A stretch of 41,372 nucleotides of DNA. It comes from a virus (lineage: Duplodnaviria; Heunggongvirae; Uroviricota; Caudoviricetes). Shown one piece after another: positions 2,498 through 16,763 of this stretch. The DNA lies in the IMG/VR virus record IMGVR_UViG_2778261576_000004, positions 1-41,372 of that record; one strand, given 5' to 3'. The notes under the pieces are model-generated. The model made no database searches and was not told the DNA's origin. It was given only the letters and a program-made list of their open reading frames with translations. The first letter of the stretch is position 1, and the number at the start of each line of letters is the position of its first letter. A program made the position numbers and the translations under genes.

Positions 2498-2746
2498 TCA
2501 TGCCGCGTTGCTCACGGGACGATATACACGTTGCTGAACAGGAGGTTTTTTACCCTGGAACTCTGCCGGGCTTGCTGCCTGACGTTCATCAAGCCAACGC
2601 TCAACTTCATCACGGTTCCATGCGCAGCGTTTATCGGTGATATACCAGCGTTTAGGAAATTCCCCTGCGCGCTCCATACGGTCGATAGTGCTCCATGACA
2701 GTGGAACCACCGCCAGGAGTTCCTTCTTACCTAATGCACCTTTCAT
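2498..2746 (-). CDS. AlpA/Xis-like small DNA-binding protein (putative excisionase or regulator)
   Basis: 82 aa; the segment LSWSTIDRMERAGEFPKRWYI...AWNRDEVERWL fits the AlpA-family HTH pattern; lies in the leftward early operon near int. Confidence 0.7.
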   Translation of the reverse strand: MKGALGKKELLAVVPLSWSTIDRMERAGEFPKRWYITDKRCAWNRDEVERWLDERQAASPAEFQGKKPPVQQRVYRPVSNAA

Positions 2747-2795
2747 AAATACCTCTCTTGGTTGCAGTGCGGCGCGCGTGGCGCCGCGGTGGTGG

Positions 2796-3737
2796 TTACA
2801 TAGATGTTTCGTTTAATTCTTCCCGACGAACGCTGTAAACGTCGGTGGCTTTTGCCAGCAGTTCGTCATCATCTGAAAGTTTTTGTGCAATGTATTTGTA
2901 AGCCTTATCCAGTTCGGAGACAGTGCTGTAATTCATCGCTGCGCTGGTAAAGGCCATCAGCATTTCTTCTGGATCACGGCTGTCCGATTTACGCGTTTGC
3001 TCATCAGGCTTTTTCGCTGGTTTAGCGTTGATCAGACTGTTCATTCCCGCAGCAGTGGTCGTTTGCGGAGTAATGTCTCGCTCAACGCGCGGTGCCGTTT
3101 CCTGTAATTCGTCTGGGGTGTAGACGCCCATGATTACGTCAGGACAGTGCAGGCGAGACCAGCGTTTTGTCGCAAGGTATGCGAGTTGTTGTTTCGGATC
3201 ACTGGCCCAAAGTGTGGAGTTTCTTACCTGTGCTTGAGACAGCATTAACTCAAGCACTCGAGGTTGATCCTCGCCCTTCATGGTTGCCCATACGCGAACA
3301 CCGCAGCCTTCTTCGTCTTTTAGAGTCCAGCCTGGTGCGATATATGGATTGCCGTTTTTGGATGTTTTCTCAACAAACTTACCGATCACGCGTTCCCACG
3401 GCCCGAACCACTCGTAGTTGATGCGATCTTTTGTTGGCGACATCGTTGAGATAACTGCGTTTACTAATTGGGCTTCATAACCTAGCGTGCCGTTCACAAC
3501 ATGGGTTTTCTGAGCCACGGCAAACGGGTTCATTCCCCACTGCGCAGCCTGCATTGCCACGGCCATGCAATCAGCTGGTTTCCCGGCGAGGTGCGCCGGT
3601 ACCGTTACGCGGCTTTGCGCCATTACCTCGGCGAATTTCATCAGTTGGTTCAAGCCGTCTGGGCTGAAAATAGTTGCAGCAGTTCCAGCGATTGCTGTGT
3701 CTACTGGTGCGTTGATGTTTGCGATGTCGTTGCTCAT
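2796..3737 (-). CDS. recT: RecT-family single-strand annealing recombinase
   Basis: About 313 aa with RecT-like sequence (NGTLGYEAQLVNAVI..., acidic C-terminus); start at the ATG giving MSNDIANI, overlapping the exonuclease stop (ATGA). Confidence 0.85.
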   Translation of the reverse strand: MSNDIANINAPVDTAIAGTAATIFSPDGLNQLMKFAEVMAQSRVTVPAHLAGKPADCMAVAMQAAQWGMNPFAVAQKTHVVNGTLGYEAQLVNAVISTMSPTKDRINYEWFGPWERVIGKFVEKTSKNGNPYIAPGWTLKDEEGCGVRVWATMKGEDQPRVLELMLSQAQVRNSTLWASDPKQQLAYLATKRWSRLHCPDVIMGVYTPDELQETAPRVERDITPQTTTAAGMNSLINAKPAKKPDEQTRKSDSRDPEEMLMAFTSAAMNYSTVSELDKAYKYIAQKLSDDDELLAKATDVYSVRREELNETSM

Positions 3738-4555
3738 ATGTACATATCCTGTTTGCGTGCCCACTCAGGGCGTTTAATGATTTCCACACCGCCCCATTCA
3801 TCATTGATGCGGCATTCGTGATAGGTATTCAGATCCCGGCGGAACAGAGCGTGCCCGGCATCGACATCCTGCGCATCCAGCTCGAACACGCGTACCGGAT
3901 ACCGACCACAATCAATGCTTTCGCTCACGGCAAGAAAGAAAAAACCATGCGGCTGACCAGTAACCCTCATTGCGCCTTCGCGGTACATTGCGTCCTGCAC
4001 GTGGTAGCGGAATTCCTCGATGTGGCGTGCAAAACGGTCCATATCTGCAACCTTTTTCACGTCGACGATCACGTTGTGCTCGTTCAGCCATTTGTCTGGA
4101 CGAATTCGGCACAACTCCCCCGTCTCTTCATCGTTCCAGTACATTGATGCTTCGCAGTAACCAGGTGCTTCCAGCATCCAGCGTGCCGCCGGGTGAGCCA
4201 TTGCGCTATCACGCATCAGCTCCAGTTTCCGCCACTGCTCGGCATCAAGTACCGTAATCCCCATATCCGCCACATCACGAAGAAATTCCTCTTCGTCAGC
4301 TTTACCTTGTTTCGTCCGACGATCGAATTTCGGTGAAACAATGAAGCGTTTGTCGAACTCTCCAGGCTCCAGAAGCAGACAGTGCAATGCGGTTCCCATA
4401 TCCAGTGCAGACTTTTTCTCTTCGTCTTCTGGTGCTGCCTGAACCCATTTAAGAAGCGCCGGATTCTTGGCAACCATGTCCAGTTGCGACTTACTCACGC
4501 CGTCACCGGCGTGGTAGTCTTCGTTGCTGATGTCGAAATAAATTCCCGGTTTCAT
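3734..4555 (-). CDS. PD-(D/E)XK exonuclease (RecE/exonuclease VIII-like partner of RecT)
   Basis: 273 aa directly upstream of and coupled to recT; D...D-V-K motif (IRPDKW...VIVDVKK) typical of PD-(D/E)XK nucleases. Confidence 0.7.
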   Translation of the reverse strand: MKPGIYFDISNEDYHAGDGVSKSQLDMVAKNPALLKWVQAAPEDEEKKSALDMGTALHCLLLEPGEFDKRFIVSPKFDRRTKQGKADEEEFLRDVADMGITVLDAEQWRKLELMRDSAMAHPAARWMLEAPGYCEASMYWNDEETGELCRIRPDKWLNEHNVIVDVKKVADMDRFARHIEEFRYHVQDAMYREGAMRVTGQPHGFFFLAVSESIDCGRYPVRVFELDAQDVDAGHALFRRDLNTYHECRINDEWGGVEIIKRPEWARKQDMYI

Positions 4556-4851
4556 GCCGCGTCCCTCTGCCCATCAAGCTGATCAGCCAGATCCCAGCGG
4601 GCGATAATTGCCATTGCCTCGCGCCGGTAGGCATCCATTAGTTCTTCGAACTCAGGGCTGTCTTTAGCGGCCTCCAGTACTTCCTGGCGAACGCCTTTAA
4701 CTGTTACAACGTCGAAAGTTGATGCCAGTTGATGAAGCCGGATACTCTCAATCAGTTCAACTTGTCGGTCATATAGCTGTTCTGACAGACGGTAGTTCTT
4801 GTCGAATGCCAGCATGATTTTTTGAAGATTTTTCTGCTGATTAACGTTCAT
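4552..4851 (-). CDS. Hypothetical early protein
   Basis: ORF in the leftward operon; start at 4851 (MNVNQQ) has an upstream GGGAGGG Shine-Dalgarno; ATG at 4866 is an alternative. Confidence 0.45.
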   Translation of the reverse strand: MNVNQQKNLQKIMLAFDKNYRLSEQLYDRQVELIESIRLHQLASTFDVVTVKGVRQEVLEAAKDSPEFEELMDAYRREAMAIIARWDLADQLDGQRDAA

Positions 4852-4854
4852 TAT

Positions 4855-5006
4855 CAGCCCTCCCATATCTCGTTATCGTTGGCCACATCGCGAGCTTCTT
4901 TGCTGACGAAAGCCCACTTAATGCCTTCCTGTAAGGTGCGGAACTTCCAGCTCATGAATCCGCATGCAGTAACGCAGTACCAACCGTTGATGATTTTCCA
5001 CTGCAT
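4855..5006 (-). CDS. Hypothetical small protein (about 50 aa)
   Basis: Short ORF (MQWKIINGWYCV...) between OL-like sites and the next early gene; below the ORF-track size cut-off; no known domain. Confidence 0.25.
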
Positions 5007-5025
5007 AACTTGTTACCTCGGTCTG

Positions 5026-5102
5026 TTACCGTTGAGGTAATAATTATGCGTATATGGTTTGATGTCAATAGATATGAGTTAAAAAAATTACCCGTTAGGT
5101 AA
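5026..5102. promoter_or_regulatory. OL-like operator region: two TTACC-N5-GGTAA palindromes (5026-5040, 5088-5102)
   Basis: Two perfect 15-bp palindromes in the intergenic region between the repressor gene and the first leftward early gene. Confidence 0.5.
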
Positions 5103-5113
5103 TCGAATAGGCA

Positions 5114-5138
5114 ATAAAAAAGCCGCCATAAGGCGGCT
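5114..5138 (-). terminator. Rho-independent terminator downstream of the repressor gene (hairpin usable on both strands)
   Basis: AGCCGCC-ATAA-GGCGGCT hairpin (5121-5138) with an A-run upstream on the plus strand, i.e. a U-tract after the hairpin on the minus strand. Confidence 0.6.
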
Positions 5139-5159
5139 TACTTACTGAAAAATATGGTT

Positions 5160-5744
5160 TTATTGTTTGTTTTTTTCGTTCTGGTTGATGACAAATTCAA
5201 TGTAACTTTCGATCTTTGCTTTCTCGGTTTCGGGTAACAATGCGTAGCGCGAGCGATCATAGTTGATGGTCGCAGGGTCGTGCGGGTGAATCAGTAATTC
5301 ATAGCCGTGACGCCCGAATGCGGATGCAACATTCTCCAGGGTGGAAATGGAAACGCTGACCTCATTGTTTAACAGGCGGCTGATTGTCACCTGGGCTACG
5401 CCGGATGCGCGGTGAAGTTTTCCCTGTGTTGAAAGGTCGCGGCTTTCGCTCATCCAGCGTTCCAGGTTGTGAGCCGCCAGCTGGCCAATGTCGCTTGGGC
5501 CGACAGGCTGAAAACCTTCCTGAGAAAGCGAGCGATCGATATCAAGCCAGTTACGGGGTTTATTGGCGGCAGCTTCAATTTTTCGCGCAACCTGATCGCC
5601 GATAACCTTCTTACCAAGAGCCCAGCGGTTTACCAGATTTGCCTGAGTTCCAAGTTTTTCAGCCATCCGCGTCTGAACACCATTGAATTCACGGTCGATC
5701 AAGTCGTTGAGATTTTGCCTGCGGACGTCCTGGATACTTTTCAT
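5160..5744 (-). CDS. Putative prophage repressor (CI-like, tandem HTH, no S24 peptidase domain recognisable)
   Basis: 194 aa; two HTH-like segments (GVQTRMAEKLGTQANLVNRW and GVAQVTISRLLNNE); sits between OL-like and OR-like palindrome pairs, divergent from a Cro-like gene. Confidence 0.55.
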   Translation of the reverse strand: MKSIQDVRRQNLNDLIDREFNGVQTRMAEKLGTQANLVNRWALGKKVIGDQVARKIEAAANKPRNWLDIDRSLSQEGFQPVGPSDIGQLAAHNLERWMSESRDLSTQGKLHRASGVAQVTISRLLNNEVSVSISTLENVASAFGRHGYELLIHPHDPATINYDRSRYALLPETEKAKIESYIEFVINQNEKNKQ

Positions 5745-5799
5745 TTTCTGGAAAATCGCCTCATATATGAATCAGTAGATGATTCAATTTAAAGCAATA

Positions 5800-5862
5800 T
5801 TACCCAACAGGTAAATGCACCTCATGGGTAACTATCCTTGATTTTTGTTACCTTATGGGTGA
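5800..5862. promoter_or_regulatory. OR-like operator region: palindrome 5800-5814 (perfect) and 5848-5862 (one mismatch)
   Basis: TTACCCAACAGGTAA and TTACCTTATGGGTGA in the 154-bp divergent intergenic region between repressor and Cro-like genes. Confidence 0.55.
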
Positions 5863-5898
5863 ATATTTATTATCTGAAATAAATATCAGGCAATAGCT

Positions 5899-6129
5899 AT
5901 GAGCGATAACGGACATTTCGATTTCAAAAAGCACTGGCTTGCACTTACTCCGGATGAGCGTGAAGCCTTCGCACAGGAAGCCGGAACGACGAGTCACTAT
6001 ATCCAGACTCACTTAACAGGTAAGCGCAAAATGCCAGGTAAAGTATTGATGAATGGGCTTTTTAAAGCCTGTAAAACAAGACAATGGCTGCGCTCAAAAG
6101 CAGAACTGGCATACTTCTTCTACTCATGA
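5899..6129 (+). CDS. Cro-like small HTH regulator
   Basis: 76 aa, divergent from the repressor across the operator region; HTH-like segment LTPDEREAFAQEAGTTSHYIQTHLTGKR. Confidence 0.45.
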   Translation: MSDNGHFDFKKHWLALTPDEREAFAQEAGTTSHYIQTHLTGKRKMPGKVLMNGLFKACKTRQWLRSKAELAYFFYS

Positions 6130-6150
6130 TATCCAGCTACAACCCTCTGT

Positions 6151-6175
6151 AGACCGCCACCCGGCGGTCTTTTCA
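6151..6175 (+). terminator. Rho-independent terminator after the Cro-like gene (tR1-like position)
   Basis: AGACCGCC-ACCC-GGCGGTCT hairpin followed by TTTCAT; immediately followed by a one-mismatch palindrome copy at 6185-6199. Confidence 0.5.
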
Positions 6176-6279
6176 TATCTATTCGTACCTCAAAGGTAAT
6201 AAAAAACCAAATATGGTTGATCTTTTTTTTGTGTCAGCACAAAATGACCGTAATCCCAATACTAATAACAGGGCTTACC

Positions 6280-6480
6280 ATGGAAATCATTACACGTATT
6301 GATGCCGCAAAGCGCGGACTTAAACGCTACTACACCGGAAAAACATGTAAGCACGGACATGACAGTGAACGCTGGGTTTACAACGGACACTGTGTTGAGT
6401 GCACCATGGAATCAAACCGTCGTATCAGGGCAGAGATTAAGCAGATCATGATTAATTCCTCCCCACAACATTCAAGCTGA
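6280..6480 (+). CDS. Hypothetical small Cys/His-rich protein (cII position)
   Basis: ORF between cro-like and O-like genes; CKHGH...HCVEC spacing suggests metal binding; start uncertain (ATG 6280 or upstream). Confidence 0.3.
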   Translation: MEIITRIDAAKRGLKRYYTGKTCKHGHDSERWVYNGHCVECTMESNRRIRAEIKQIMINSSPQHSS

Positions 6481-6495
6481 TAGCGGAGATTAATC

Positions 6496-7311
6496 ATGAG
6501 CAGACATGCAACAGATTGGGCCTGGGAGACAGATCCAGGTAGCTCATCATTAAAGCTCATACTGCTCTCGATGGCTGACAGAGCCGATGAATATAACCTC
6601 TGCTACCCCAGCATAGAACGCCTCGTTAAAGACACTTGCCTGAATAAAAAAACCGTGCAGGCCGGGCTTATATCGCTCATGAAAATGGGGCTTATTTCAG
6701 ATACCGGAGAGAGAAAGGGAGCGACAAAAAGAGTGCGGGTTTTCTCTCTTAATATAACCAAAAACGGGAACATTAAAGGCAACCGGGAGGGGGGCAATGA
6801 ACCCGAAAACGGTAATGTTACCGAAAACGGGAATATACCCAAAAACGGGATGTTGAATGATCCCAAAAACGGGATGTTGAATGATCCCAAAAACGGGATC
6901 CAGAACCAGTCATATAACCAGTCATTTAACCAAGAGAGGGAGAGCAGGACAAAAACCCGAGGTTCTGTGCCTCATGACCCCGGCGCAAACAACGCCGTGA
7001 TGAATAACTTTGTTCCTCCTGGTGGGCCAGGGCAATTAGGCAAATTTGTCATGCATGAACAATGGCAGCCATCAGATGACTTTCTTCGGAAAAGCTCATT
7101 GCAGGGGATCTACCTGGACAGTCTGCCAACGGCACAGGAACTTGCAGAGTTCAGAATTTACTGGATGGCTGAGGGTAAGGCATACCATCAGGCACAGTGG
7201 GAGCAGAAGCTGGCAAGGCGGCTGCAGATTAGCAGACAGAAGCAATCAACATTACCTGATAACAACGTTCCGCACTGGAACAGCCCTGAAGCATGGGAGG
7301 ATTTCTTGTGA
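6496..7311 (+). CDS. Replication initiator (lambda O-like HTH N-terminus, repeat-rich middle)
   Basis: N-terminal LKLILLSMADRADEYNLCYPSIERL-type winged-helix region common to phage replication initiators; internal DNA iterons; sits directly before the P-like gene. Confidence 0.75.
   Translation: MSRHATDWAWETDPGSSSLKLILLSMADRADEYNLCYPSIERLVKDTCLNKKTVQAGLISLMKMGLISDTGERKGATKRVRVFSLNITKNGNIKGNREGGNEPENGNVTENGNIPKNGMLNDPKNGMLNDPKNGIQNQSYNQSFNQERESRTKTRGSVPHDPGANNAVMNNFVPPGGPGQLGKFVMHEQWQPSDDFLRKSSLQGIYLDSLPTAQELAEFRIYWMAEGKAYHQAQWEQKLARRLQISRQKQSTLPDNNVPHWNSPEAWEDFL
6758..6901 (+). repeat. Iteron-like direct repeats inside the O-like gene (putative ori)
   Basis: About six spaced copies of CC(A/G)AAAACGG(G/T)A, including two identical 24-bp units CCCAAAAACGGGATGTTGAATGAT at 6838-6861 and 6862-6885. 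Confidence 0.55.
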
Positions 7312-8093
7312 ACAACGTTTTTACCGCGATACAAAACCGTGACGGAGAAGCCCTTTCTCGCATGTCAGGTTATGAGCATCAGTACGTCAACAATGACAAT
7401 GTGGTGAACATGTCAGCAGAGAGGCTTGTTGATGCCCTTTTCAAACAGCTGAAACAACTGTTTCCGGCGGCAGTGGTAACCAACCTGAAGACGCCAGAGC
7501 AGGAAGTCGCTGCAAAACAGCAGTGGATTGCTGCGTTTGCCGAAGGGGGGATCCGAACCCGTGAACAGGTTTCTGCTGGTATGCGCCACGCCCGCGCCAG
7601 TGAATCTCCGTTCTGGCCGTCGCCTGGGCAATTCATCAAGTGGTGTAAAGACAGCAAGATGGTTCTTGGCGTCACCATTGATGATGTGATGGCGGAGTTT
7701 AACCGGTACAGCAAGGAAAAAAGTTTATATCCTGGTGGTCCCGAAAGATTCCCGTGGCGACATCCGGTTATGTACTGGGTCGTATGTGATACCCGCCGTG
7801 CAATGTATCAGCGCCAGCTTAGCGAGATTGAGGTTGAGAAACACGCGCGCAGGCTGCTCGATGATTGGGCGAAAAAGGTGGCTTCCGGACAGCAGATACC
7901 CGATCCGGTGATCAGCATACAGGCAAAGCCAGAACCCATGAGTACACCTCCGGACACAGGGAGAGACGTTTACCATCCACCAGGGCGAAGTTTCGGGTGC
8001 ATGCCTAACGCCGCCACCCTTGGTGGAATAACACCGGCGCAGTGGCTGATGGAGGAATACAGGCGAGGAAAGGCGGCAGGATTTATCAAGTAA
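7293..8093 (+). CDS. Replication protein P-like (DnaB helicase loader)
   Basis: Colinear similarity to lambda P as recalled: ...FPAAVV...QQWIAAFAEGGIRTREQVSAGMRHARASESPFWPSPGQFIKWCK matches the P motif ...RQWVLAFRENGITTMEQVNAGMRVARRQNRPFLPSPGQFVAWCR. Confidence 0.8.
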   Translation: MGGFLVNNVFTAIQNRDGEALSRMSGYEHQYVNNDNVVNMSAERLVDALFKQLKQLFPAAVVTNLKTPEQEVAAKQQWIAAFAEGGIRTREQVSAGMRHARASESPFWPSPGQFIKWCKDSKMVLGVTIDDVMAEFNRYSKEKSLYPGGPERFPWRHPVMYWVVCDTRRAMYQRQLSEIEVEKHARRLLDDWAKKVASGQQIPDPVISIQAKPEPMSTPPDTGRDVYHPPGRSFGCMPNAATLGGITPAQWLMEEYRRGKAAGFIK

Positions 8094-8130
8094 TACCAGC
8101 GCGATAGCGCATTTTTTTACGCCTCGACAA

Positions 8131-8207
8131 TTACCTGTTAGGTAATAAAATATTCTAAAATCTATTGATTTCGTGTCTTATGTGGTTTTTAATTACCTCA
8201 GAGGTAA
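8131..8207. promoter_or_regulatory. Two palindrome copies (8131-8145, 8193-8207) plus a TATGTGGTT box (8179-8187) upstream of the 8211 gene
   Basis: Perfect TTACCTGTTAGGTAA and TTACCTCAGAGGTAA; the second ends 3 nt before ATG 8211 and overlaps the SD. Confidence 0.45.
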
Positions 8208-8210
8208 ATC

Positions 8211-8555
8211 ATGAGAAAACAGATACAGGCTCTTGGTCGACTCAAAACAGGTCAGATGAACAAAACAGAATCTGCGTATTGCCAGCACCTTGAGCTGCGT
8301 AAACGTGCAGGAGAAATCGTCTGGTATCGATTTGAGGGTATCAAGCTGCGGTTAGCTGACAACACGTTCTATACGCCCGATTTTGCTGTGATGCTCGCCA
8401 CCGGCGAGATGGAACTGCACGAAGTGAAAGGTTTCTGGACCGACGACGCCAGGGTGAAAACCAAAGTCGCCGCAGATCAGTATCCGTTCCGAATCATCGG
8501 GGTAACTGTTAAACCAAAGAAAGCAGGTGGTGGCTGGATCATCGAAGAGTTCTGA
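8211..8555 (+). CDS. PD-(D/E)XK-like nuclease (DUF1064-like phage protein)
   Basis: 114 aa with YTPDF...ELHEVKG (D...E-x-K) motif; family name from memory, not searched. Confidence 0.5.
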   Translation: MRKQIQALGRLKTGQMNKTESAYCQHLELRKRAGEIVWYRFEGIKLRLADNTFYTPDFAVMLATGEMELHEVKGFWTDDARVKTKVAADQYPFRIIGVTVKPKKAGGGWIIEEF

Positions 8556-8616
8556 ATCGACGATCTTTTTAGTTATCAATGTTATCAATAAGTTATGTGG
8601 ATAAGCGAGGGTAAAG

Positions 8617-9150
8617 ATGGAAAGTAATATCAAATGGTTAGTTGCCGCCGGGCATGAGATGGCTTCGGAACTGAAAGCAGAATGTGGTGCCGTTGATATG
8701 CGCAGTGTGGCAAAGCTGATCAGCGATTTGGCAACGCAACTGGAAGTGCAACTGGTGCGTGCTAATGCGCTGGCCGAAGACCAGCAGAAAGCGATTGAGT
8801 CAATTAAGCAGGCTGATGCAGCTGTTAAGTTGGCACACGAGAAGTTTTCGGCGCTGGCAGCGGAGAATGCGAGACTGAAATCTGCGCACCCTCAACCATT
8901 CGGACCTGAGATGATGAAGGCTATTGATGCGTATGAGAAGTATCAGGATGAAGTGCCGGAGACTGGGATGCTCAATGCATTTTTCATCTTGCGCGACAGT
9001 ATCCGTGTTGACACCACAGCCACCGATGCTTTCCTGGCTGAAGTGCGGGCGCAGGTGGTAGAGATGTTTGCGGAGTGTGCATACACGCTTGAACATCATG
9101 ATCACGCAGTAGCTTTTGCCGCCGAGCTACGTGAAGGAGGCAACCAGTGA
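8617..9150 (+). CDS. Ea22-like family protein (paralog 1)
   Basis: C-terminal 45 aa (ATDAFLAEVRAQ...HHDHAVAFAAELR.GGNQ) nearly identical to the end of the 10601-11248 product; shares the ALAAENA coiled-coil module with the other paralogs. Confidence 0.55.
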   Translation: MESNIKWLVAAGHEMASELKAECGAVDMRSVAKLISDLATQLEVQLVRANALAEDQQKAIESIKQADAAVKLAHEKFSALAAENARLKSAHPQPFGPEMMKAIDAYEKYQDEVPETGMLNAFFILRDSIRVDTTATDAFLAEVRAQVVEMFAECAYTLEHHDHAVAFAAELREGGNQ

Positions 9151-9446
9151 CTGTATGTCTTATTGATAAACGTCGACGTGGGCAACAAATACCATCTGTT
9201 GAAATGCCGAATCACACATGGTTTTGCGTACTTGATATCGATGGTATGGATACGTTGATCGACACTCGTCATTACTGCGATACCGCAACAGCTACTCCTG
9301 CAAAAGCAAAGAAAATGGCTGCTCTGATAGAAAACTGGACTCCACCTGATGGTTGGTGCAATGGGAATGATCGAGATTGGCACGAAAAAATGAAGGGCTA
9401 TATCTGCGATTTTTTACGTAAATGCAACGGATTCAGGGTGATGTGA
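9147..9446 (+). CDS. Hypothetical protein
   Basis: GTG start overlapping the upstream stop (CAGTGA junction); tightly packed within the Ea22-like array. Confidence 0.35.
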   Translation: MTVCLIDKRRRGQQIPSVEMPNHTWFCVLDIDGMDTLIDTRHYCDTATATPAKAKKMAALIENWTPPDGWCNGNDRDWHEKMKGYICDFLRKCNGFRVM

Positions 9447-9447
9447 T

Positions 9448-10317
9448 ATGACCAAAATTAACTATCAGGCACTGCGTGAAGCGGCAGAAAAGGCAACACC
9501 AGACGAATGGGTCGCATTTATTTCGACGGATACTGGTACTTATGCGGTGCACACGCCCGGTGATGAACGATGTGAAGACGTTATCAAATGGACCGGCTTT
9601 GATGGACAGAAAAATGCAGAGAACAACGCTCGTTATGTTGCCGCGTTCAACCCAAAGGTTGCACTGGAGCTGCTTGGTGAAATTAAGCGCCTGGAGGACA
9701 CAAATATTGATGCTATGTGTCGAATTGCAGAGCTTGAGACTAATCTCGCGGCGCTGGCAGCGGAGAATGCGGCGCTGAAGGCCGGGGCTATGTATTTCTC
9801 ATATGGCTCTGAATTTAGTTTCGAGTGTCACAAAACTGCTGAGGAGGCTATCGCTGCTGCTGAGGCTGCAATTGACGACTATAGAGGCGATGCTTGCGAT
9901 GGATGGAGCGAAGAGGTCGAAAGCATTTGCTGGGGGGTAATTATTCAGCAGGCAACCAAGGTCGGTGAACGCAAGAAGAGGAAATGCGACAGAGTATCAC
10001 CATGGATTGAAAGAGTTTGTGATTATGAGCTTCGACCTAATGTCGAAACCCCAGCCACCGATGCTTTCCTGTCTGAAATTCGTGCGGAAGCACGCAACGA
10101 GGGGATTAACTATACCGCCAGCCGTCTTGCTGCTGCGTTCAATCACGGATTTATCAATAAGTCTTTACGTGAAGTTTTCGACGTTACACGCATGATTTTG
10201 TCAGCGAAAGAAGAGTTGGCTAATGAAGCGCATCCGATTGATGGCCTGTCTGGTGAATATGCGGAGAAATCCCTTGAAGAATGGGCGGAACAGATTCGCA
10301 AAGGAAGCAGCCAGTGA
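9448..10317 (+). CDS. ead/Ea22-like family protein (paralog 2)
   Basis: N-terminus MTKINYQALREAAEKAT typical of ead/Ea22-like proteins; contains the ALAAENAALKA and ATDAFLSEIRA modules. Confidence 0.7.
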   Translation: MTKINYQALREAAEKATPDEWVAFISTDTGTYAVHTPGDERCEDVIKWTGFDGQKNAENNARYVAAFNPKVALELLGEIKRLEDTNIDAMCRIAELETNLAALAAENAALKAGAMYFSYGSEFSFECHKTAEEAIAAAEAAIDDYRGDACDGWSEEVESICWGVIIQQATKVGERKKRKCDRVSPWIERVCDYELRPNVETPATDAFLSEIRAEARNEGINYTASRLAAAFNHGFINKSLREVFDVTRMILSAKEELANEAHPIDGLSGEYAEKSLEEWAEQIRKGSSQ

Positions 10318-10604
10318 ATATCGACACGACAATAACGATCGATACGCTCCTAAATACCGGTCTGGCACTTCTCGGTTGGCTTTACATCATGTCCCGCACA
10401 TGGCGATGGCTGGGTTCCATTTTCCTAAAACAGTGGAAAAAACGGCGCAAACAGGAACTACGCCAGAAGGCATTAGAAGCGTTCTATGACGCATTTGAGC
10501 TTAGCCGCATTGAACCAGGTACAACAGCCAGGATAGCGACAAAAGGCGACCTGATGATAGTGATGTTCCGACAGGAGAGAGCAGAGAAAGGGGAATCAGC
10601 ATGA
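10314..10604 (+). CDS. Hypothetical small membrane protein
   Basis: GTG start overlapping the upstream stop (CAGTGA); hydrophobic segment LLNTGLALLGWLYIM followed by a basic stretch. Confidence 0.3.
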   Translation: MNIDTTITIDTLLNTGLALLGWLYIMSRTWRWLGSIFLKQWKKRRKQELRQKALEAFYDAFELSRIEPGTTARIATKGDLMIVMFRQERAEKGESA

Positions 10605-11248
10605 AATTTTCCAAATTTTCTGAGTTGGTGAATCGTATTTTGTCCAACAACCACAGCCATCGTCGCGATATGGATGTAACAATCGTTGTTCATTCGCCTG
10701 GCAGCATTGGTTCAACACCTTCAGTTGAGGTTCAGTCAATTCACGCTGGTTTTGATTGGGATTCCGGGAAAGTGCTTATTTTCCCATCACAGCCACTGAC
10801 CACGCTAACACCAGAACAGATTACTGATATCACTGATAGTGTGCGCAAAGGTCAGTCTTGGCACGCATATCAGGAATACAAGAAGCATCAAGAGCAGTTG
10901 GAAAAATTGTCGATTGAACTGGATGCCGCAAAACAGCGCATTGCAGAGCTGGAGGGTAATCGCACGGCGCTGGCAGTGGAGAATGAGCTGGCTCGTAAGG
11001 CAGTTCAGGCATTCTGCGATGTTGTTGGCGACAACACCGAGGTTATCGCTGAGGTGGTTGGGCGAGATGGCGTTCTGGTTATTTTGGAGGCCATGAAGGC
11101 AACAGGAAATATGCCAGCCACCGATGCTTTCCTGGCTGAAGTACGGGCGCAGGGCGTGGAGATGTTTGCGGAGTGTGCATACACGCTTGAACATCATGAT
11201 CACGCAGTAGCTTTCGCCGCTGAGCTTCGCAAAGGAGGCAACCAGTGA
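10601..11248 (+). CDS. Ea22-like family protein (paralog 3)
   Basis: Shares the roughly 130-bp 3' module with 8617-9150 and the coiled-coil module with the other paralogs. Confidence 0.55.
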   Translation: MKFSKFSELVNRILSNNHSHRRDMDVTIVVHSPGSIGSTPSVEVQSIHAGFDWDSGKVLIFPSQPLTTLTPEQITDITDSVRKGQSWHAYQEYKKHQEQLEKLSIELDAAKQRIAELEGNRTALAVENELARKAVQAFCDVVGDNTEVIAEVVGRDGVLVILEAMKATGNMPATDAFLAEVRAQGVEMFAECAYTLEHHDHAVAFAAELRKGGNQ

Positions 11249-12015
11249 GCAAGATTGACTATCAGGCACTGCGTGAAAAGGCAGAGAAAGCAACTAAAGG
11301 AAGCTACATCGTAGGGCATACATCTGTTAACCAGCACGGCAATTTAACAGGAGTTTTTGTTTGCCAAAAATGGAAAGGAGAACCCGGTGGTGTGATTGCG
11401 GAATGTCATGTTAACTGCCTAGTTGAAACAGATGTTCAGGCTTATGCAAACGCTGAATTTATTGCTGCTTTTAATCCAAATGTTGCGCTGGCCCTGCTGG
11501 ATGAACGGGAAAGAAACCAGCAATACATCAAACGCCGCGACCAGGAGAACGAGGAGATTGCGCTTACGGTTGGGAAGCTGCGTGTTGAGCTTGAAGCAGC
11601 AGAGAACAACCTTATTGATAGTGAATGCCATGTTGCTGAACTGGAAGAAGCGCTACGCGATAAGCAGGCGTTACTTGAAGCCTCAGAAAAGCGCAACGCA
11701 AAATTACAAAGCGAGAATGCATACATCCGCAACCGGTACAAAGAACTGGACCTATTAATCGGGAAAAACATTCTGGTCATGCAGGCTGCCATTATCGAAT
11801 GGCAGGCAACTGGCGACGCTAAGAGCGGACTAGCATGGATTTATAACACACTGTTTGGCCCTGGCGAATTACCGGACGAATCTGAGAAAGATGCTCAGGC
11901 CTACTTTAATCGCAAATATGCACCGATTGACGAAAAGCTTATGGCGCTTCACAAGTGGTTTTGGGAACAAAGTGAAGCCGAGCGCGCTACTGGCATTCGC
12001 ATCAAAGGAGAGTGA
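11245..12015 (+). CDS. ead/Ea22-like family protein (paralog 4)
   Basis: N-terminus MSKIDYQALREKAEKAT; GTG start overlapping the upstream stop (CAGTGA); central coiled-coil. Confidence 0.7.
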   Translation: MSKIDYQALREKAEKATKGSYIVGHTSVNQHGNLTGVFVCQKWKGEPGGVIAECHVNCLVETDVQAYANAEFIAAFNPNVALALLDERERNQQYIKRRDQENEEIALTVGKLRVELEAAENNLIDSECHVAELEEALRDKQALLEASEKRNAKLQSENAYIRNRYKELDLLIGKNILVMQAAIIEWQATGDAKSGLAWIYNTLFGPGELPDESEKDAQAYFNRKYAPIDEKLMALHKWFWEQSEAERATGIRIKGE

Positions 12016-12016
12016 G

Positions 12017-12208
12017 ATGGACGGACAAATATCAATTACTCGACCTAACACAGGTGATGATGACAAGATAAGAATGGCTATTCGTCTGGAGAGAGGAAAA
12101 ACAATAACTGTCCTTGTTACCCCAGAAAATCTTGCATTAGCACTGACCGGAAAGTCAGAACTCCCCGTAGAGCTAGATGTGAGAAATGTTGAGATTAAGG
12201 TGAAATAG
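12017..12208 (+). CDS. Hypothetical small protein (63 aa)
   Basis: ATG at 12017 directly after the upstream stop; in-frame part of ORF-track entry 11855-12208. Confidence 0.3.
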   Translation: MDGQISITRPNTGDDDKIRMAIRLERGKTITVLVTPENLALALTGKSELPVELDVRNVEIKVK

Positions 12209-12210
12209 GT

Positions 12211-12972
12211 ATGATCACTATTACCAAAGAACGTCTGCTGACAATCAAGCAATGGCGCGAAACATACGGACTAGGTAGCAACGTTGTACTGCCAGCAGAA
12301 GAAGCGCAAGAACTGGCTCGAATTGCTCTGGCATCGCTGGAAACAGAGCCTGTAGCATGGATGTGTGAGGACGCAGATGGTCGTGAGTATAACGCTCGCA
12401 ATGAATTTTCTGGTGGGAGGAAAGGAACCCCACTCTACACCTCTCCTAACGTGCAGGTAGTGCCGGAAGAAATGTATTGGCAGGATGCGCCAGTTGAAGT
12501 CAGCAGCAAAGCGGCTGCATACGCTACAGGCTGGAATGCCTGCCGCGCTGCCATGCTTCATAGTGCCGAACCTGCAAGTAATCATGAAGAGTTGCCGTTT
12601 GATTATCTCCAAGGTCAAAAAGATGGTCTTGAATGGGCTGCGCAGCTTGCAGAAGCAAATCACCCACAAACTGGCGACTGGCTTTACGATGACCCGCTGG
12701 AGCTGGCTAAAGCTATCAGAAAAGGTCCTGACATGCCCGAATTCGATGGACCAACTCCGGTAACTCCGGATGGTTGGATAAGCTGTAGTGAGCGAATGCC
12801 GGAAGAAACGGGTGACATTATTGTTGTTTCGGATGGCATTGTAATGTCCGGGATTTCTTATTCTCGTCGTGACGGGTTCTATATAGCCGCATTGGAGTAC
12901 GACGACGATGAACCAATTGGCGGTGTAACCCACTGGATGCAACTACCAGAACCGCCGCAGGAGGCGAAATGA
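12211..12972 (+). CDS. DUF551-like phage protein
   Basis: C-terminal GWISCSERMPEE...GVTHWMQLPEPP resembles the DUF551 signature as recalled. Confidence 0.6.
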   Translation: MITITKERLLTIKQWRETYGLGSNVVLPAEEAQELARIALASLETEPVAWMCEDADGREYNARNEFSGGRKGTPLYTSPNVQVVPEEMYWQDAPVEVSSKAAAYATGWNACRAAMLHSAEPASNHEELPFDYLQGQKDGLEWAAQLAEANHPQTGDWLYDDPLELAKAIRKGPDMPEFDGPTPVTPDGWISCSERMPEETGDIIVVSDGIVMSGISYSRRDGFYIAALEYDDDEPIGGVTHWMQLPEPPQEAK

Positions 12973-13322
12973 TGGACTATTCACAGTTAAGTGATTTTGA
13001 AATTAACAGAATGGTAGGAGACATAATTTTTAAAGGACTTTGGGCGTGTAAACCGGAAACATCAGGGAATAACACCAACAAATGGTATTACGGAAATACT
13101 GATACAACTTTTGAGCCATTAAACCCTTTACCTGACTACTGCAATAATCCATCGGATGCATGGCCTATTATTGTTGATAATAAAATCAGTCTAACCTGCC
13201 ACCACTCTCGCGGTGAGTGGTCAGCAGTTTTTAATGCCGACAACATTTGCTTTCATGCGAATAATCCACTCCGAGCCGCCATGATTGTATTTCTCATGAT
13301 GCAGGAAAATCAGAATGGCTAA
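12969..13322 (+). CDS. Hypothetical phage protein
   Basis: 117-aa ORF with overlapping stop/start on both sides; no confident domain call. Confidence 0.4.
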   Translation: MMDYSQLSDFEINRMVGDIIFKGLWACKPETSGNNTNKWYYGNTDTTFEPLNPLPDYCNNPSDAWPIIVDNKISLTCHHSRGEWSAVFNADNICFHANNPLRAAMIVFLMMQENQNG

Positions 13323-13653
13323 ATCAGCAGCAGAGCGCAAAGCCGCTCAGAGAGCCAGACAAGCTGCATCTGGCGTGCGTAAGCTGGAAATTGTGCTTGA
13401 TGCTCAGGAAATTGAAATGCTGGAGCGTAACTGTGCCACGCGTCGCCCCGGGCGTGCGCCTTACGAATTTGGTGAGTATATAGCGTTACTGATCCGCCAG
13501 GATGATGCACGCGTGCGCGGGCGTATAAAATCGATCAGCAGAAAACGTTGCGGTAAGTGCGGCGAGATAGTTCCTGTGAATTCATGCCCGTGTAATGGTG
13601 ACTCGCAATGCTGGGTGACCAAAGGCTGGCATGAAACGAAATTAATAGTGTGA
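13315..13653 (+). CDS. Hypothetical protein with basic N-terminus and C-terminal Cys cluster (candidate regulator)
   Basis: N-terminus MAKSAAERKAAQRARQAASG...; C-terminal CGKCGEIVPVNSCPCNGDSQC zinc-ribbon-like cluster; last gene before the terminase-proximal terminator. Confidence 0.4.
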   Translation: MAKSAAERKAAQRARQAASGVRKLEIVLDAQEIEMLERNCATRRPGRAPYEFGEYIALLIRQDDARVRGRIKSISRKRCGKCGEIVPVNSCPCNGDSQCWVTKGWHETKLIV

Positions 13654-13670
13654 CATGTCACGAAGGTGTT

Positions 13671-13883
13671 ATGCCAAAAATACGCTACGACCTTGAAGAT
13701 ATGAGAGATAACTCAGCAAATTTTCCGAAAGAGGTTAAATTTCTCATGCATAAGTATGGTTGCGCCAGGAGGGATATAGTTATCGACAGTCAGCACCCTT
13801 GCGGCGAGGATGTAATTTTCATTCGCGGTAAATGGGAAGGGTATCTTGACGAGAGTTTTTACGATGAATTTGATGGACTTTGA
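13671..13883 (+). CDS. Hypothetical small protein
   Basis: ATG at 13671 with GAAGGTG SD; the GTGACATGTCAC palindrome overlaps the upstream stop. Confidence 0.3.
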   Translation: MPKIRYDLEDMRDNSANFPKEVKFLMHKYGCARRDIVIDSQHPCGEDVIFIRGKWEGYLDESFYDEFDGL

Positions 13884-13888
13884 ATACT

Positions 13889-13914
13889 GCCGCCAACTAT
13901 GGCGGCTTTATTTT
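13889..13914 (+). terminator. Rho-independent terminator upstream of the terminase genes
   Basis: GCCGCC-AACTAT-GGCGGC hairpin followed by TTTATTTTG. Confidence 0.6.
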
Positions 13915-13925
13915 GCATGGTACTA

Positions 13926-13940
13926 TTACCACAACGGTAA
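13926..13940. promoter_or_regulatory. TTACC-N5-GGTAA palindrome upstream of the terminase small subunit gene
   Basis: Perfect TTACCACAACGGTAA between the terminator and ATG 13958 (17 nt upstream); a partial repeat (CTATTACCAC) follows. Confidence 0.45.
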
Positions 13941-13957
13941 CTATTACCACGGTGGTT

Positions 13958-14554
13958 ATGATGCCTGCTGAACCTAAAACCTATAAACGCAAATCAACGC
14001 AATTTAAGCCGCTCACAGCAATGCAGGAGGCTTATTGCCAGTCATACATCAAAACGCCTGAAAACCAGACTCAGGCAGCGATTAACGCAGGATTCTCCCC
14101 AAATACAGCGGCAGTTAAAGCCAGTGTCATGATGCGCGATGAACGCATTCAAAAACGGATTGCCGAGTTGATGGAGGAGCGCAACAAACGAATGCGCGTC
14201 AGTGCTGATTACGTTCTCATGCGCCTGGTGGAGATCGACCAGATGGACGTGATCGACATCCTCAACGACGATGGGAGCCTTAAGCCAATCCGCGAGTGGC
14301 CGAAAATCTGGCGCACTACGCTTAGTGGCTTTGATCTGTCATCGACCATCATGAACATGAACGAGGATTCGATAGAGACAATCCTCAAAAAAATTAAATG
14401 GCCTGACAAGGTGAAGAACCTCGAACTGATTGGTAAGCACGTCGACGTCAACGCGTTCAAAGAACGCCTGGATGTTAATGTGAATGTGACAATTGCTGAT
14501 CGCATAGCGGCAGCCAGGAAGCGACTCAAAGAACGTCAGGATGGTAATCAGTGA
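13958..14554 (+). CDS. Terminase small subunit
   Basis: Directly upstream of and coupled to the large subunit; HTH-like N-terminus (TAMQEAYCQSYIK...AAINAGFSPNTAAVKAS). ORF-track start 13880 rejected because it spans the terminator. Confidence 0.65.
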   Translation: MMPAEPKTYKRKSTQFKPLTAMQEAYCQSYIKTPENQTQAAINAGFSPNTAAVKASVMMRDERIQKRIAELMEERNKRMRVSADYVLMRLVEIDQMDVIDILNDDGSLKPIREWPKIWRTTLSGFDLSSTIMNMNEDSIETILKKIKWPDKVKNLELIGKHVDVNAFKERLDVNVNVTIADRIAAARKRLKERQDGNQ

Positions 14555-16026
14555 CAGATACAGCGTTATCTCCTGAAGAGCAGTTGATCGAGGATATTGC
14601 AGGGTTCACTCACGATCCGCTTGGCTATGCCCTCTATGCGTTCCCGTGGGGGGAAGAGGGTACTGAACTGGCACATGCCACCGGTCCACGTCAGTGGCAG
14701 GCCGATGCGTTCCGAGAGATACGTGATCACCTGCAGAATCCAGAGACGCGATATCAGCCGCTTATGCTGGCACGTGCTTCTGGTCACGGTATTGGTAAAT
14801 CCGCATTCATCTCAATGCTGATCAACTGGGGCATGTCCACTTGCGAGGATTGTAAGGTCGTGGTGACCGCCAACACCGACAACCAGCTACGAACGAAGAC
14901 CTGGCCGGAAATTATCAAGTGGTCGAACCTTGCTATCACGAAAGACTGGTTTACCTGTACCGCTACCGCGATGTACAGCAATGATCCTGGGCACGACAAG
15001 CGGTGGCGAGCTGACGCAATCCCCTGGTCTGAGCACAACACTGAGGCATTCGCCGGACTACACAACGAGCGCAAACGCATCATCGTGGTATTCGATGAAG
15101 CGTCGAACATTGCGGATCTGGTGTGGGAAGTTGCCGAAGGTGCGCTAACTGACGAAGACACTGAGATTATCTGGGTGGCGTTCGGAAACCCGACGCGTAA
15201 TACCGGGCGATTCCGTGAATGTTTCCGCAAATATAAACACCGCTGGAAAACTGCGCAGATTGACAGCCGGACGGTGGAAGGCACTAACAAACAGCAGTTG
15301 CAGAAATGGGTTGATGACTACGGGGAAGACAGCGACTTCGTTAAAATCCGTGTGCGCGGCATATTCCCTGATGCATCTGAATTGCAGTTTATCCCTACCG
15401 GTCTTACTGATGAGGCAATGAAACGGGTGGTAACCGCTGCGCAGGTGGCGCATGCTCCGGTGATAATCGGTGTTGACCCGGCATATTCAGGCGTTGATGA
15501 CGCGGTGATATACCTGCGGCAGGGGCTACACAGTAAGGTGCTGTGGACTGGCAACAAGACTACCGACGATCTGATTATGGCGAAGCGTATCGCTGACTTT
15601 GAAGACCTGTATCAGGCTGACGCAGTGTTCATCGACTTTGGTTACGGTACCGGTCTGAAGTCAATCGGTGATGGTTGGGGGCGCACATGGCAACTTGTTC
15701 CGTTCGGTGGCGCGTCTACTGACCAGCAGATGCTCAACAAGCGTGGGGAGATGTTCAACTCATGCAAGACATGGCTGAGGCTGGGCGGGATGCTGGATGA
15801 CCAGGAAACAGCGGACGATCTGTCGGCGGCAGAGTACAAAGTTCGAGTGGACGGTAAAATCGTTATCGAACCGAAGGAAGATATCAAGGAGCGGCTTGGG
15901 CGTTCGCCTGGTAAAGGCGATGCGCTACTGCTGACGTTTGCGTTCCCTGTGTCGAAGCGTCTGCGAATTCCCGGGCAGCAGAACCAGCAAGGCAAGGCCA
16001 TCACAGATTACGATCCCTATGCTTAA
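14551..16026 (+). CDS. Terminase large subunit
   Basis: 491 aa; Walker A-like ARASGHGIGKS, Walker B-like IIVVFDEAS and a C-terminal nuclease-type region; GTG start overlapping the small-subunit stop. Confidence 0.9.
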   Translation: MTDTALSPEEQLIEDIAGFTHDPLGYALYAFPWGEEGTELAHATGPRQWQADAFREIRDHLQNPETRYQPLMLARASGHGIGKSAFISMLINWGMSTCEDCKVVVTANTDNQLRTKTWPEIIKWSNLAITKDWFTCTATAMYSNDPGHDKRWRADAIPWSEHNTEAFAGLHNERKRIIVVFDEASNIADLVWEVAEGALTDEDTEIIWVAFGNPTRNTGRFRECFRKYKHRWKTAQIDSRTVEGTNKQQLQKWVDDYGEDSDFVKIRVRGIFPDASELQFIPTGLTDEAMKRVVTAAQVAHAPVIIGVDPAYSGVDDAVIYLRQGLHSKVLWTGNKTTDDLIMAKRIADFEDLYQADAVFIDFGYGTGLKSIGDGWGRTWQLVPFGGASTDQQMLNKRGEMFNSCKTWLRLGGMLDDQETADDLSAAEYKVRVDGKIVIEPKEDIKERLGRSPGKGDALLLTFAFPVSKRLRIPGQQNQQGKAITDYDPYA

Positions 16027-16686: not shown

Positions 16687-16763
16687 TGGCGTGGCATGCA
16701 GGATTCGAACCTGCGACCAACCGCTTAGAAGGCGGTTGCTCTGTCCGACTGAGCTAATGCCAC
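16687..16763 (-). tRNA. tRNA-Arg (anticodon UCU)
   Basis: Minus strand folds by hand into a cloverleaf: acceptor GTGGCAT/ATGCCAC, D-arm GCTC/GAGC, anticodon stem ACCGC/GCGGT with loop CTTCTAA, T-arm GCAGG-TTCGAAT-CCTGC, encoded CCA. Confidence 0.85.

Follow-up and report, generated by a model that had tools for sequence, protein, structure and literature searches.

The question raised by positions 8,617 to 12,015 of the IMG/VR virus record IMGVR_UViG_2778261576_000004 (41,372 nucleotides (nt), analysed at full length and referred to below as the window) is how neighbouring genes of a phage came to share stretches of closely similar DNA, phage genomes being usually devoid of repeated sequences (PMC3945230). 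The original prediction, made from the letters by themselves, described this region as an array of four Ea22-like paralogs shaped by recombination-driven domain shuffling. Comparison of module order among 92 related loci, comprising 80 IMG/VR loci retrieved with the DUF1064 protein as an anchor and more from other look-ups, bears out the shuffling, as mosaic junctions lie on the repeats, the flanks of the linkers reassort and a cassette exchange could be mapped. The array is very likely explained as a mosaic produced by homologous recombination at short linkers.

Repeats and in-frame linkers

The genes of the array and the linkers within them, the repeat families being designated D1 to D6, are as follows:
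8617-9150, plus strand: g1, 177 amino acids (aa), phrog_492, with an N-terminal module of its own, the coil linker and a C-terminal module common with g5
8849-8879, plus strand: copy 1 of the coil linker D3, encoding ..SALAAENARLK..
9006-9051, plus strand: copy 1 of D2, encoding V-D-T-T-ATDAFLAEVRA, which opens the C-terminal module
9125-9150, plus strand: copy 1 of D4, with the Shine-Dalgarno (SD) sequence AAGGAGG at 9134-9140, a 6-nt spacer, GTG at 9147 and TGA at 9148-9150
9147-9446, plus strand: g2, 99 aa, GTG start, DUF7739 (PF24881, 76 bits, residues 1-93)
9448-10317, plus strand: g3, 289 aa, Ead/Ea22-like (PF13935, 73.3 bits), with D6 at 9449-9497, D5/D3 at 9721-9779, D2 at 10041-10086 and D4 at 10292-10317
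10314-10604, plus strand: g4, 96 aa, GTG start, DUF4752
10601-11248, plus strand: g5, 215 aa, with its own N-terminal domain (phrog_6026), a long helix, a middle cassette and a g1-type C-terminal module; D5/D3 at 10937-10995, D2 at 11104-11149, D1 at 11115-11248 and D4 at 11223-11248
11245-12015, plus strand: g6, 256 aa, GTG start, Ead/Ea22-like (PF13935, 125 bits), with copy 2 of D6 at 11246-11294, a lambda-Ea22-like coil at about 11458-11613 and the end ..IRIKGE
12017-12208, plus strand: small open reading frame (ORF) of 63 aa, no family assigned, 3' of g6, kept beside ea22 in the Stx phage BP-4795 (ORF6)

All of the repeats that had been described were found, and they are far above background: the longest exact direct repeat measures 56 nt, whereas in 200 codon-shuffled versions it averages 11.6 nt and never exceeds 16, and six 15-mers occur at least three times as compared to none in any of the 200 shuffles. 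The 3' segment of roughly 130 bp common to g1 and g5 corresponds to D1, which extends over 134 nt (9017-9150 and 11115-11248) with 9 mismatches (blastn E=3e-54), so that its description as nearly identical is slightly generous at 93.3% identity. The opening of this segment was also correctly held to recur near 10052, the 21-mer CCAGCCACCGATGCTTTCCTG being present three times, in each case inside one of the 46-nt D2 repeats at 9006, 10041 and 11104. The sequence GCGCTGGCAG(C/T)GGAGAATG likewise occurs three times, at 8851, 9751 and 10967, of which the second had been placed exactly and the others at 8853 and 10970. In addition, we identified repeats of 49 nt at 9721/10937 (D5) and at 9449/11246 (D6, the Ead N-terminus), and gene ends of 26 nt at 9125/10292/11223 (D4).

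Judged from their translations, these repeats are in-frame linkers, which represent the ALAAEN coil heptads, PATDAFLAEVRAQ, the gene end ...LRKGGNQ-stop and the Ead N-terminus; the corresponding peptides can be written as ..ALAAENAxLK.., PATDAFL(A/S)E(V/I)RA, FAA(E/Q)LRKGGNQ-stop and, for the Ead start, M(S/T)KI(D/N)YQALRE. The C-terminal module is, on this reading, under purifying selection, as the differences between the D1 copies are mostly synonymous (6 of the 9, the other 3 nt falling in 2 non-synonymous codons). The 8-nt GCGCTGGC at 8767-8774 constitutes a further in-frame joint, located exactly 28 codons 5' of the coil linker. This octamer is present twice in g1 (8767-8858), the copies being 84 nt, equivalent to 28 codons or four heptads, apart, and since 20 related loci lack or replace exactly the stretch from one copy of GCGCTGGC to the other, this suggests that the length of the coil changes in whole-heptad steps.

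The designation of g1, g3, g5 and g6 as four Ea22-like paralogs holds in part. Among these proteins only g3 and g6 pass the Pfam Ead_Ea22 profile (PF13935, gathering score 27 bits); in the Pfam scan g1 had no match and g5 had sub-threshold coiled-coil matches only, PHROG 368/492 matches were obtained for both, and NCBIfam returned no match for any array protein. The Ead N-terminal domain is common to g3 and g6 (32.5% over 166 aligned positions), g1 and g5 have in common a C-terminal module of 43 aa with 95% identity, and g3 resembles g1/g5 along part of the coil and over 13-16 aa of the ATDAFL segment. Protein comparison detected no significant similarity of g1 and g5 to g6, and the N-domains of g1, g3 and g5 are mutually unrelated. 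By these comparisons the four genes are a chain of partial relatives and not full-length paralogs, what is common to g1 and g5 being only the coil and C-terminal modules. A PDB sequence search with g3 found no relative, its match to an engineered lectin construct being rejected as chance coiled-coil similarity.

Reassortment at the linkers and origin of the array

When the related loci were tiled with segments of the window, non-colinear joins were found to fall on the repeats, and the overlap of the tiles at the joins, which ranged from 21 to 134 nt, was the length of the repeat in common:
8869 to 10965: 6 loci
8879 to 9749: 3 loci
9051 to 10041: 1 locus
10077 to 11114: 1 locus
11153 to 10052: 2 loci
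10317 to 11223: 4 loci
11277/11280 to 9449: 2 loci

The endpoints of 22 of the 52 join instances, or 11 of the 18 distinct types, were placed precisely in copies of one repeat family, as compared to 1% expected for a random pair of endpoints (binomial P=5e-18 for the 11 of 18 types). A further 20 joins (8774 to 9751, 10967 or 8851) use GCGCTGGC, and the remaining joins are at homologous Ead positions or gene boundaries. The linker cores are present in 85-92 of 93 sequences, and the sequence types on either side of them reassort:
D3 (coil): 7 upstream and 19 downstream types in 39 combinations, with 71 four-gamete quartets
D2 (ATDAFL): 16 upstream and 18 downstream types in 51 combinations, with 37 four-gamete quartets
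D4 (gene end): 30 upstream and 24 downstream types in 69 combinations, with 35 four-gamete quartets

Relatives of g5, of which there were 3959 at E ≤ 0.001, with 27 aligned and the 120 closest listed, display this arrangement at the protein level. In the alignment of 27 sequences residues 1-125 are almost invariant and are followed, after ALA(A/V)EN, by unrelated variants, conservation returning at PATDAFLAEVRAQG, being lost once more and returning at the end FAA(E/Q)LRKGGNQ. The 120 closest relatives combine 6 middle cassettes with 12 C-terminal cores, among them the DUF551 C-terminus, in 18 combinations behind a single N-domain.

One exchange could be mapped within the array itself. Window positions 9456-11294 are carried contiguously by P1-like contigs at 99.1-99.6% identity, the mismatches being clustered at both ends, and the 1.78-kb block encompassing g3, g4 and g5 (9481-11258) has just 2 mismatches to the P1-like cassettes and is flanked by the two copies of the Ead-start linker (D6). 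The exact g5 protein was present in 391 blocks of the assembly collection, and because the contigs bearing it, in the places that were read, mostly carry phd/doc-like, hot-like and Lpa-like genes, most of them would appear to be P1-like phage-plasmids; a P22/lambda-like prophage also has exact g5, beside the integrase, and so does a Uetakevirus-type prophage. The sister prophages L094, L096 and L100, whose g1 protein is identical, have the order g1, g2 and an Ead gene (250 aa) without the g3-g5 block, and are colinear with the window as far as 9497, the end of the Ead-start linker, diverging thereafter. At the other side, g6 is identical to ORF7 of Stx phage BP-4795 over 11260-11390 (93% DNA identity overall), and ORF7 and ORF6 of that phage, the counterparts of g6 and the 63-aa ORF, lie in the exo-xis region at the position of lambda ea22. 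For each D1 copy there is an allele with 99% identity or more in another element, as compared to 93% identity to its partner in the window, and for this reason the repeats are best read as modules that were imported and not made by duplication in place. The array may thus be described as a backbone (to about 9480), a P1-type cassette (9481-11258) and an Stx-type ea22 (from about 11260), joined within the D6 copies, with 9481-11258 representing an apparently recent acquisition.

P1-like phage-plasmids were also observed to possess arrays of their own (L082 5178-5489; L086-L090), consisting of two to four Ead/Ea22-like genes and including a truncated pseudogene, and the order of the g2-like and g5-like genes in L082 differs from that in the window.

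The four-gene arrangement is rare, and probably of recent date. Window positions 2617-15150 are 100% identical to a contig of assembly GCA_002229335.1, and the exact g3, which spans the left join, was found only in this source assembly and in one 2.1-kb Logan contig, the latter covering 9087-11188 at 100% and breaking off within the 56 nt over which the two 134-nt copies agree exactly. Among complete E. coli genomes and phage records, none contains 80% or more of the array region.

We propose that the accessory genes at this locus, mosaic members of the Ead/Ea22 family included, would be non-essential and translationally coupled, and that their proteins would be organised in slots, with an N-terminal domain that varies, a long coiled-coil helix, a middle cassette that varies as well, and a C-terminal module in which the core is variable. 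As the linker peptides are conserved, 20-50 nt of DNA would be kept similar between otherwise unrelated genes, and homologous recombination could cross over within such stretches. Phage recombinases of the Rad52-like type are known to generate mosaics where homology is short and diverged (De Paepe et al. 2014, PMC3945230), and since the window encodes RecT together with a PDDEXK exonuclease, a combination fit for short diverged homology and thus a candidate for these sites, enzymes of the phage RecT/exonuclease type would be the most likely agents of exchange, with host RecA as the alternative. Domains and whole genes would thereby reassort among epsilon15-like, P1-like and lambdoid phages, and the present array would have arisen when a g1-g2-Ead prophage received the P1-type 1.78-kb Ead-DUF4752-g5 block, flanked there by two Ead-start linkers, the end of each upstream gene providing the following gene with its ribosome-binding site and start.

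An origin by tandem duplication in place and later divergence, of which the repeats would be the leftovers, accords with direct repeats in the same orientation, with the similar architecture of the genes and with repeat copies that differ mostly synonymously, as those of old paralogs would. Such an origin is nevertheless improbable and already largely refuted by the outside alleles to which the D1 copies are 99-100% identical, as compared to 93% to each other, by the near identity of 9481-11258 to P1-like plasmids (2 mismatches), by the sister prophages which have an identical g1 and are without g3-g5, and by the unrelated N-domains of g1, g3 and g5. It is just as improbable, if not slightly more so, that the array is an assembly chimera in which plasmid sequence was threaded into a prophage via the short linkers. 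The confinement of the arrangement to a single draft genome and a Logan contig of 2.1 kb, and the failure of any complete E. coli genome or phage record to hold 80% or more of the region, would suit an artefact of this type, but two false joins would be required, an independent sequence, the Logan contig, runs across the g2-g3 junction at 100% identity, and the backbone and plasmid types of the left linker mismatch at 9456, 9460, 9470, 9479-9482 and 9492, leaving no long exact word by which a de Bruijn assembler could be misled.

It is highly unlikely that the repeats are conserved protein motifs only, whose DNA similarity stems from purifying selection with no recombination involved. The linkers do vary at synonymous sites among loci and encode structurally plausible conserved helices; this explanation, however, is at odds with the combinatorial reassortment and the many four-gamete quartets at each linker, with mosaic junctions that sit on linkers, with a 1.78-kb near-identical tract that ends inside them, and with the three ATDAFL copies, whose codons are identical at six synonymous sites. 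Programmed variation by a shufflon, an invertase or a diversity-generating retroelement, with the repeats as sites or templates, might be considered on the grounds that variable cassettes are bounded by several short repeats. It is scarcely credible, as all of the repeats are direct with no matching inverted copies, the differences are between genomes and not within one, and neither the annotation of a 97%-identical phage nor the Pfam scans revealed a reverse transcriptase or invertase, the prophage integrase being the only site-specific recombinase.

A number of points weigh against linker-mediated recombination as the explanation of the array. Recombination, like the presumed direction of transfer, is deduced from sequence comparison. 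The IMG/VR loci are not phylogenetically independent, and the flank types counted above, being defined by ungapped 90-nt comparison at 80% identity, may be over-split. The exact four-gene arrangement, present in one draft assembly and one short Logan contig only, may derive from a single isolate. Owing to the synonymous-site variation among loci, conservation of the linkers would seem to be mainly at the protein level, and they would not be dedicated recombination signals. Finally, the AlphaFold2 model of g5 (built on the 27-sequence alignment, mean predicted local distance difference test score 57) is confident only for a long helix at residues 87-142 and poor outside it, and domain boundaries are consequently rough; this predicted helix contains the coil linker, and the ATDAFL linker would open the next helical unit.

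Gene junctions and genomic setting

The CAGTGA hexamer is located at 9145, 10312, 11243 and 14549. As had been predicted, three genes of the array start with a GTG that overlaps the preceding TGA within this hexamer (9147, 10314 and 11245), and these starts are backed by homology, the Pfam DUF7739 and Ead_Ea22 profiles starting at residues 1-2 of the proteins read from GTG. The longest ORF for g4 commences at ATG 10281 and overlaps g3 by 37 nt; GTG 10314 is the better supported start and ATG 10281 probably wrong, as the PHROG 667 alignment begins at residue 12 of the longer ORF, corresponding to GTG 10314, and RefSeq has a 96-aa DUF4752 protein with a 4-nt overlap with the upstream gene. At the three array junctions the upstream gene ends in ..(E/K)-G-(G/S)-(N/S)-Q-stop, and AAGGAGG or AAGGAAG is followed at 6 nt by the GTG overlapping TGA, an embedded ribosome-binding site and overlapping stop/start which would explain the conservation of the junction. 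Of 118 CAGTGA junctions in the loci, 96 prove to be genuine stop/start overlaps, and the genes that follow belong to at least 7 unrelated kinds, suggesting that the SD-stop-start junction moves as a unit, presumably with translational coupling of the genes it joins.

The large terminase subunit was also said to start at a CAGTGA, and this is indeed present (14549-14554, plus strand), but it represents a separate junction with one upstream and one downstream type in all 21 loci, and since its flanks never reassort it is, by this comparison, outside the shuffling system. CAGTGA as a motif in its own right was rejected: the hexamer is common in the window, with 21 occurrences on the plus strand as compared to about 11 expected, no more than 4 of them mark gene junctions, and at the terminase copy the flanks do not reassort.

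A second form of junction, referred to as '+GE', is situated at the end of g6:
12004-12019, plus strand: AAAGGAGAGTGAgATG, with SD at 12005-12010, stop at 12013-12015, ATG at 12017 and an SD-to-start spacing of 6 nt

Of the 70 AAAGGAGAGTGA ends in the loci, 69 have an ORF of 40 codons or more starting 1 nt after them, many different genes being found downstream. All Ea22 proteins have been reported by Dydecka et al. to end in K/R-G-E, a feature to which these authors could assign no significance (PMC7093339). The simplest explanation offered by the sequences is that the '+GE' tail of Ea22 proteins (AAAGGAGAGTGAnATG; AAAGGAGAG) would be an embedded ribosome-binding-site junction of the same kind as CAGTGA. 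In lambda (NC_001416) the same AAAGGAGAGTGAGAT junction as in g6 lies directly 3' of ea22 at 29840-29850, with ATC replacing ATG, and because of this replacement the lambda motif looks like a relic, the small downstream ORF of Stx phages and of the window seemingly having been lost in lambda.

The first 20 kb of the window is about 97% identical to the Uetakevirus-type coliphages phiv142-3, PAS61, phiV10 and TL-2011b, a similarity that identifies the window as an E. coli prophage of the phiV10/epsilon15 type (Uetakevirus). The annotated order in phiv142-3 is integrase, methylase, RecT, RecE-like exonuclease, repressor, primosomal and P-like replication proteins, a small-gene block and terminase, and the Ea22-like array occupies the small-gene block between the replication genes and terminase. 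Other features of the window which are relevant here are:
1-1251: prophage integrase, the sole site-specific recombinase of the window
2796-3764, minus strand: RecT recombinase (PF03837, 152 bits), candidate enzyme for exchange at short homologies
3734-4555, minus strand: PDDEXK/RecE-like exonuclease, also matching the exonuclease VIII C-terminus, candidate exchange enzyme
7293-8093: P-like helicase loader, upstream neighbour of the array
8211-8555: DUF1064 protein, upstream neighbour
12211-12972: DUF551, downstream neighbour
12969-13322: NinX, downstream neighbour
13880-14554: terminase small subunit, downstream neighbour
14551-16026: terminase large subunit, downstream neighbour

At 5325 bp the stretch from DUF1064 to terminase is the longest observed, as compared to 1975-4723 bp in 65 relatives. 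Nearly all gene boundaries in the array overlap or are 1-2 nt apart, with GTGA/ATGA overlaps or 1-nt spacers from g1 to NinX. A scan of 5000-15000 gave no convincing signal for an internal promoter or terminator in the array, with 13 promoter-like sites found as compared to a shuffle mean of 13.9 (no excess), and 19 terminator-like sites as compared to a shuffle mean of 10.0 (standard deviation 3.4), those within the array being weak low-GC stems. The tightly packed boundaries and the lack of a standout internal signal are consistent with the array genes forming one translationally coupled early operon.

Elsewhere in the window, a repeat of 18-24 nt (core CCCAAAAACGGGA) was noted six times at 6750-6902, inside the DnaT/HTH replication-initiator gene (6496-7311), and by analogy with lambda O these copies look like origin iterons within an initiator gene. 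Just past the terminase genes there is a tRNA-Arg gene (anticodon TCT, 16687-16763, minus strand), and phiv142-3 has a tRNA at the same place which is annotated on the opposite strand relative to terminase.

Likely function and likeness to known systems

Lambda Ea22 consists of an N-terminus, a coiled coil and a C-terminal domain and is tetrameric (PMC10834534). The Ea22 proteins of lambda and Stx phages favour lysogeny by a route that is unknown (PMC10834534, PMC7093339), the experiments in which Ea22 deletion shifted the lysis-lysogeny balance having been performed on lambda and Stx phages only (PMC7093339). The coil of g6 has 73% identity over 52 aa to that of lambda Ea22, and by analogy the array proteins are most likely oligomeric coiled-coil proteins displaying variable end domains, which may act as early modulators of the lysis-lysogeny balance. 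The sole PADLOC match was of residues 145-242 of g6 (11677-11970) to a 127-position model labelled DpdH (E=1.8e-36), a match without an NCBIfam equivalent, and no other Dpd component was found; literature searches for DpdH brought up nothing of use for reading this match. The model could be mislabelled or contaminated by prophage sequence, or else an Ea22-type C-terminus could really be linked to a defence-island protein.

More speculatively, and with appreciable doubt, Ead/Ea22 could be a slot-and-linker cassette system present in three or more temperate phage lineages that are unrelated to each other (epsilon15-like, P1-like and lambdoid/P22-like), encoding arms-race proteins whose KGE and KGGNQ ends would be dictated at the DNA level by the requirement for a ribosome-binding site rather than by what the protein does. 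If so, hypervariable cassettes, N-terminal, middle and C-terminal alike, would stay freely exchangeable on one common coiled-coil scaffold by virtue of the linkers, a pattern that would fit anti-defence or exclusion adaptors and less so simple modulators of lysis and lysogeny. In any event, the locus offers a base-level example in which a podovirus-like prophage, P1-like phage-plasmids and Stx/lambdoid phages appear to trade parts of genes via 20-50 nt of coding sequence, it presents the poorly understood Ea22 family as built from exchangeable cassettes, and it predicts that the array is liable to lose 2,098 bp by deletion between the 134-nt repeats. The slot-and-linker layout and the ribosome-binding-site explanation of the conserved C-terminal tails are new, if small, points; the array is otherwise a well-resolved and ordinary instance of known phage mosaicism in a known family, with no new mechanism.

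Three known systems may be compared to the array. As in lambda Ea22 (PMC10834534, PMC7093339), a variable N-terminus would be followed by a coiled coil and a variable C-terminal domain, the Ead_Ea22 domain is present in g3 and g6, and g6 has both the M-S-x-I-x-x-Q-A-L-R-E start and the ..GIRIKGE end; in contrast to lambda Ea22, the array genes lie 3' of the replication genes in a podovirus-type prophage and not in a pL-driven exo-xis region, g1 and g5 are without the Ead domain, and the C-terminal domains bear no relation to the lambda domain of solved structure and have no PDB match. Translational coupling by ATGA/GTGA overlaps, as known from phage operons, is resembled in that the SD sequence lies 6 nt 5' of the start and inside the preceding gene, but at this locus the SD-stop-start unit is conserved and portable, sets the KGGNQ or KGE end of unrelated domains and precedes many different genes. 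Phage mosaicism by relaxed homologous recombination (PMC3945230) is paralleled by exchanges at short, partly diverged homologies in a phage encoding RecT and an exonuclease, and by small intragenic swaps between functional phages and other resident elements; the array differs from it in that the crossover sites are recurring in-frame linkers within one family, with slot-like cassettes between them, and in that several members of the family reside in one phage, giving rise to internal direct repeats.

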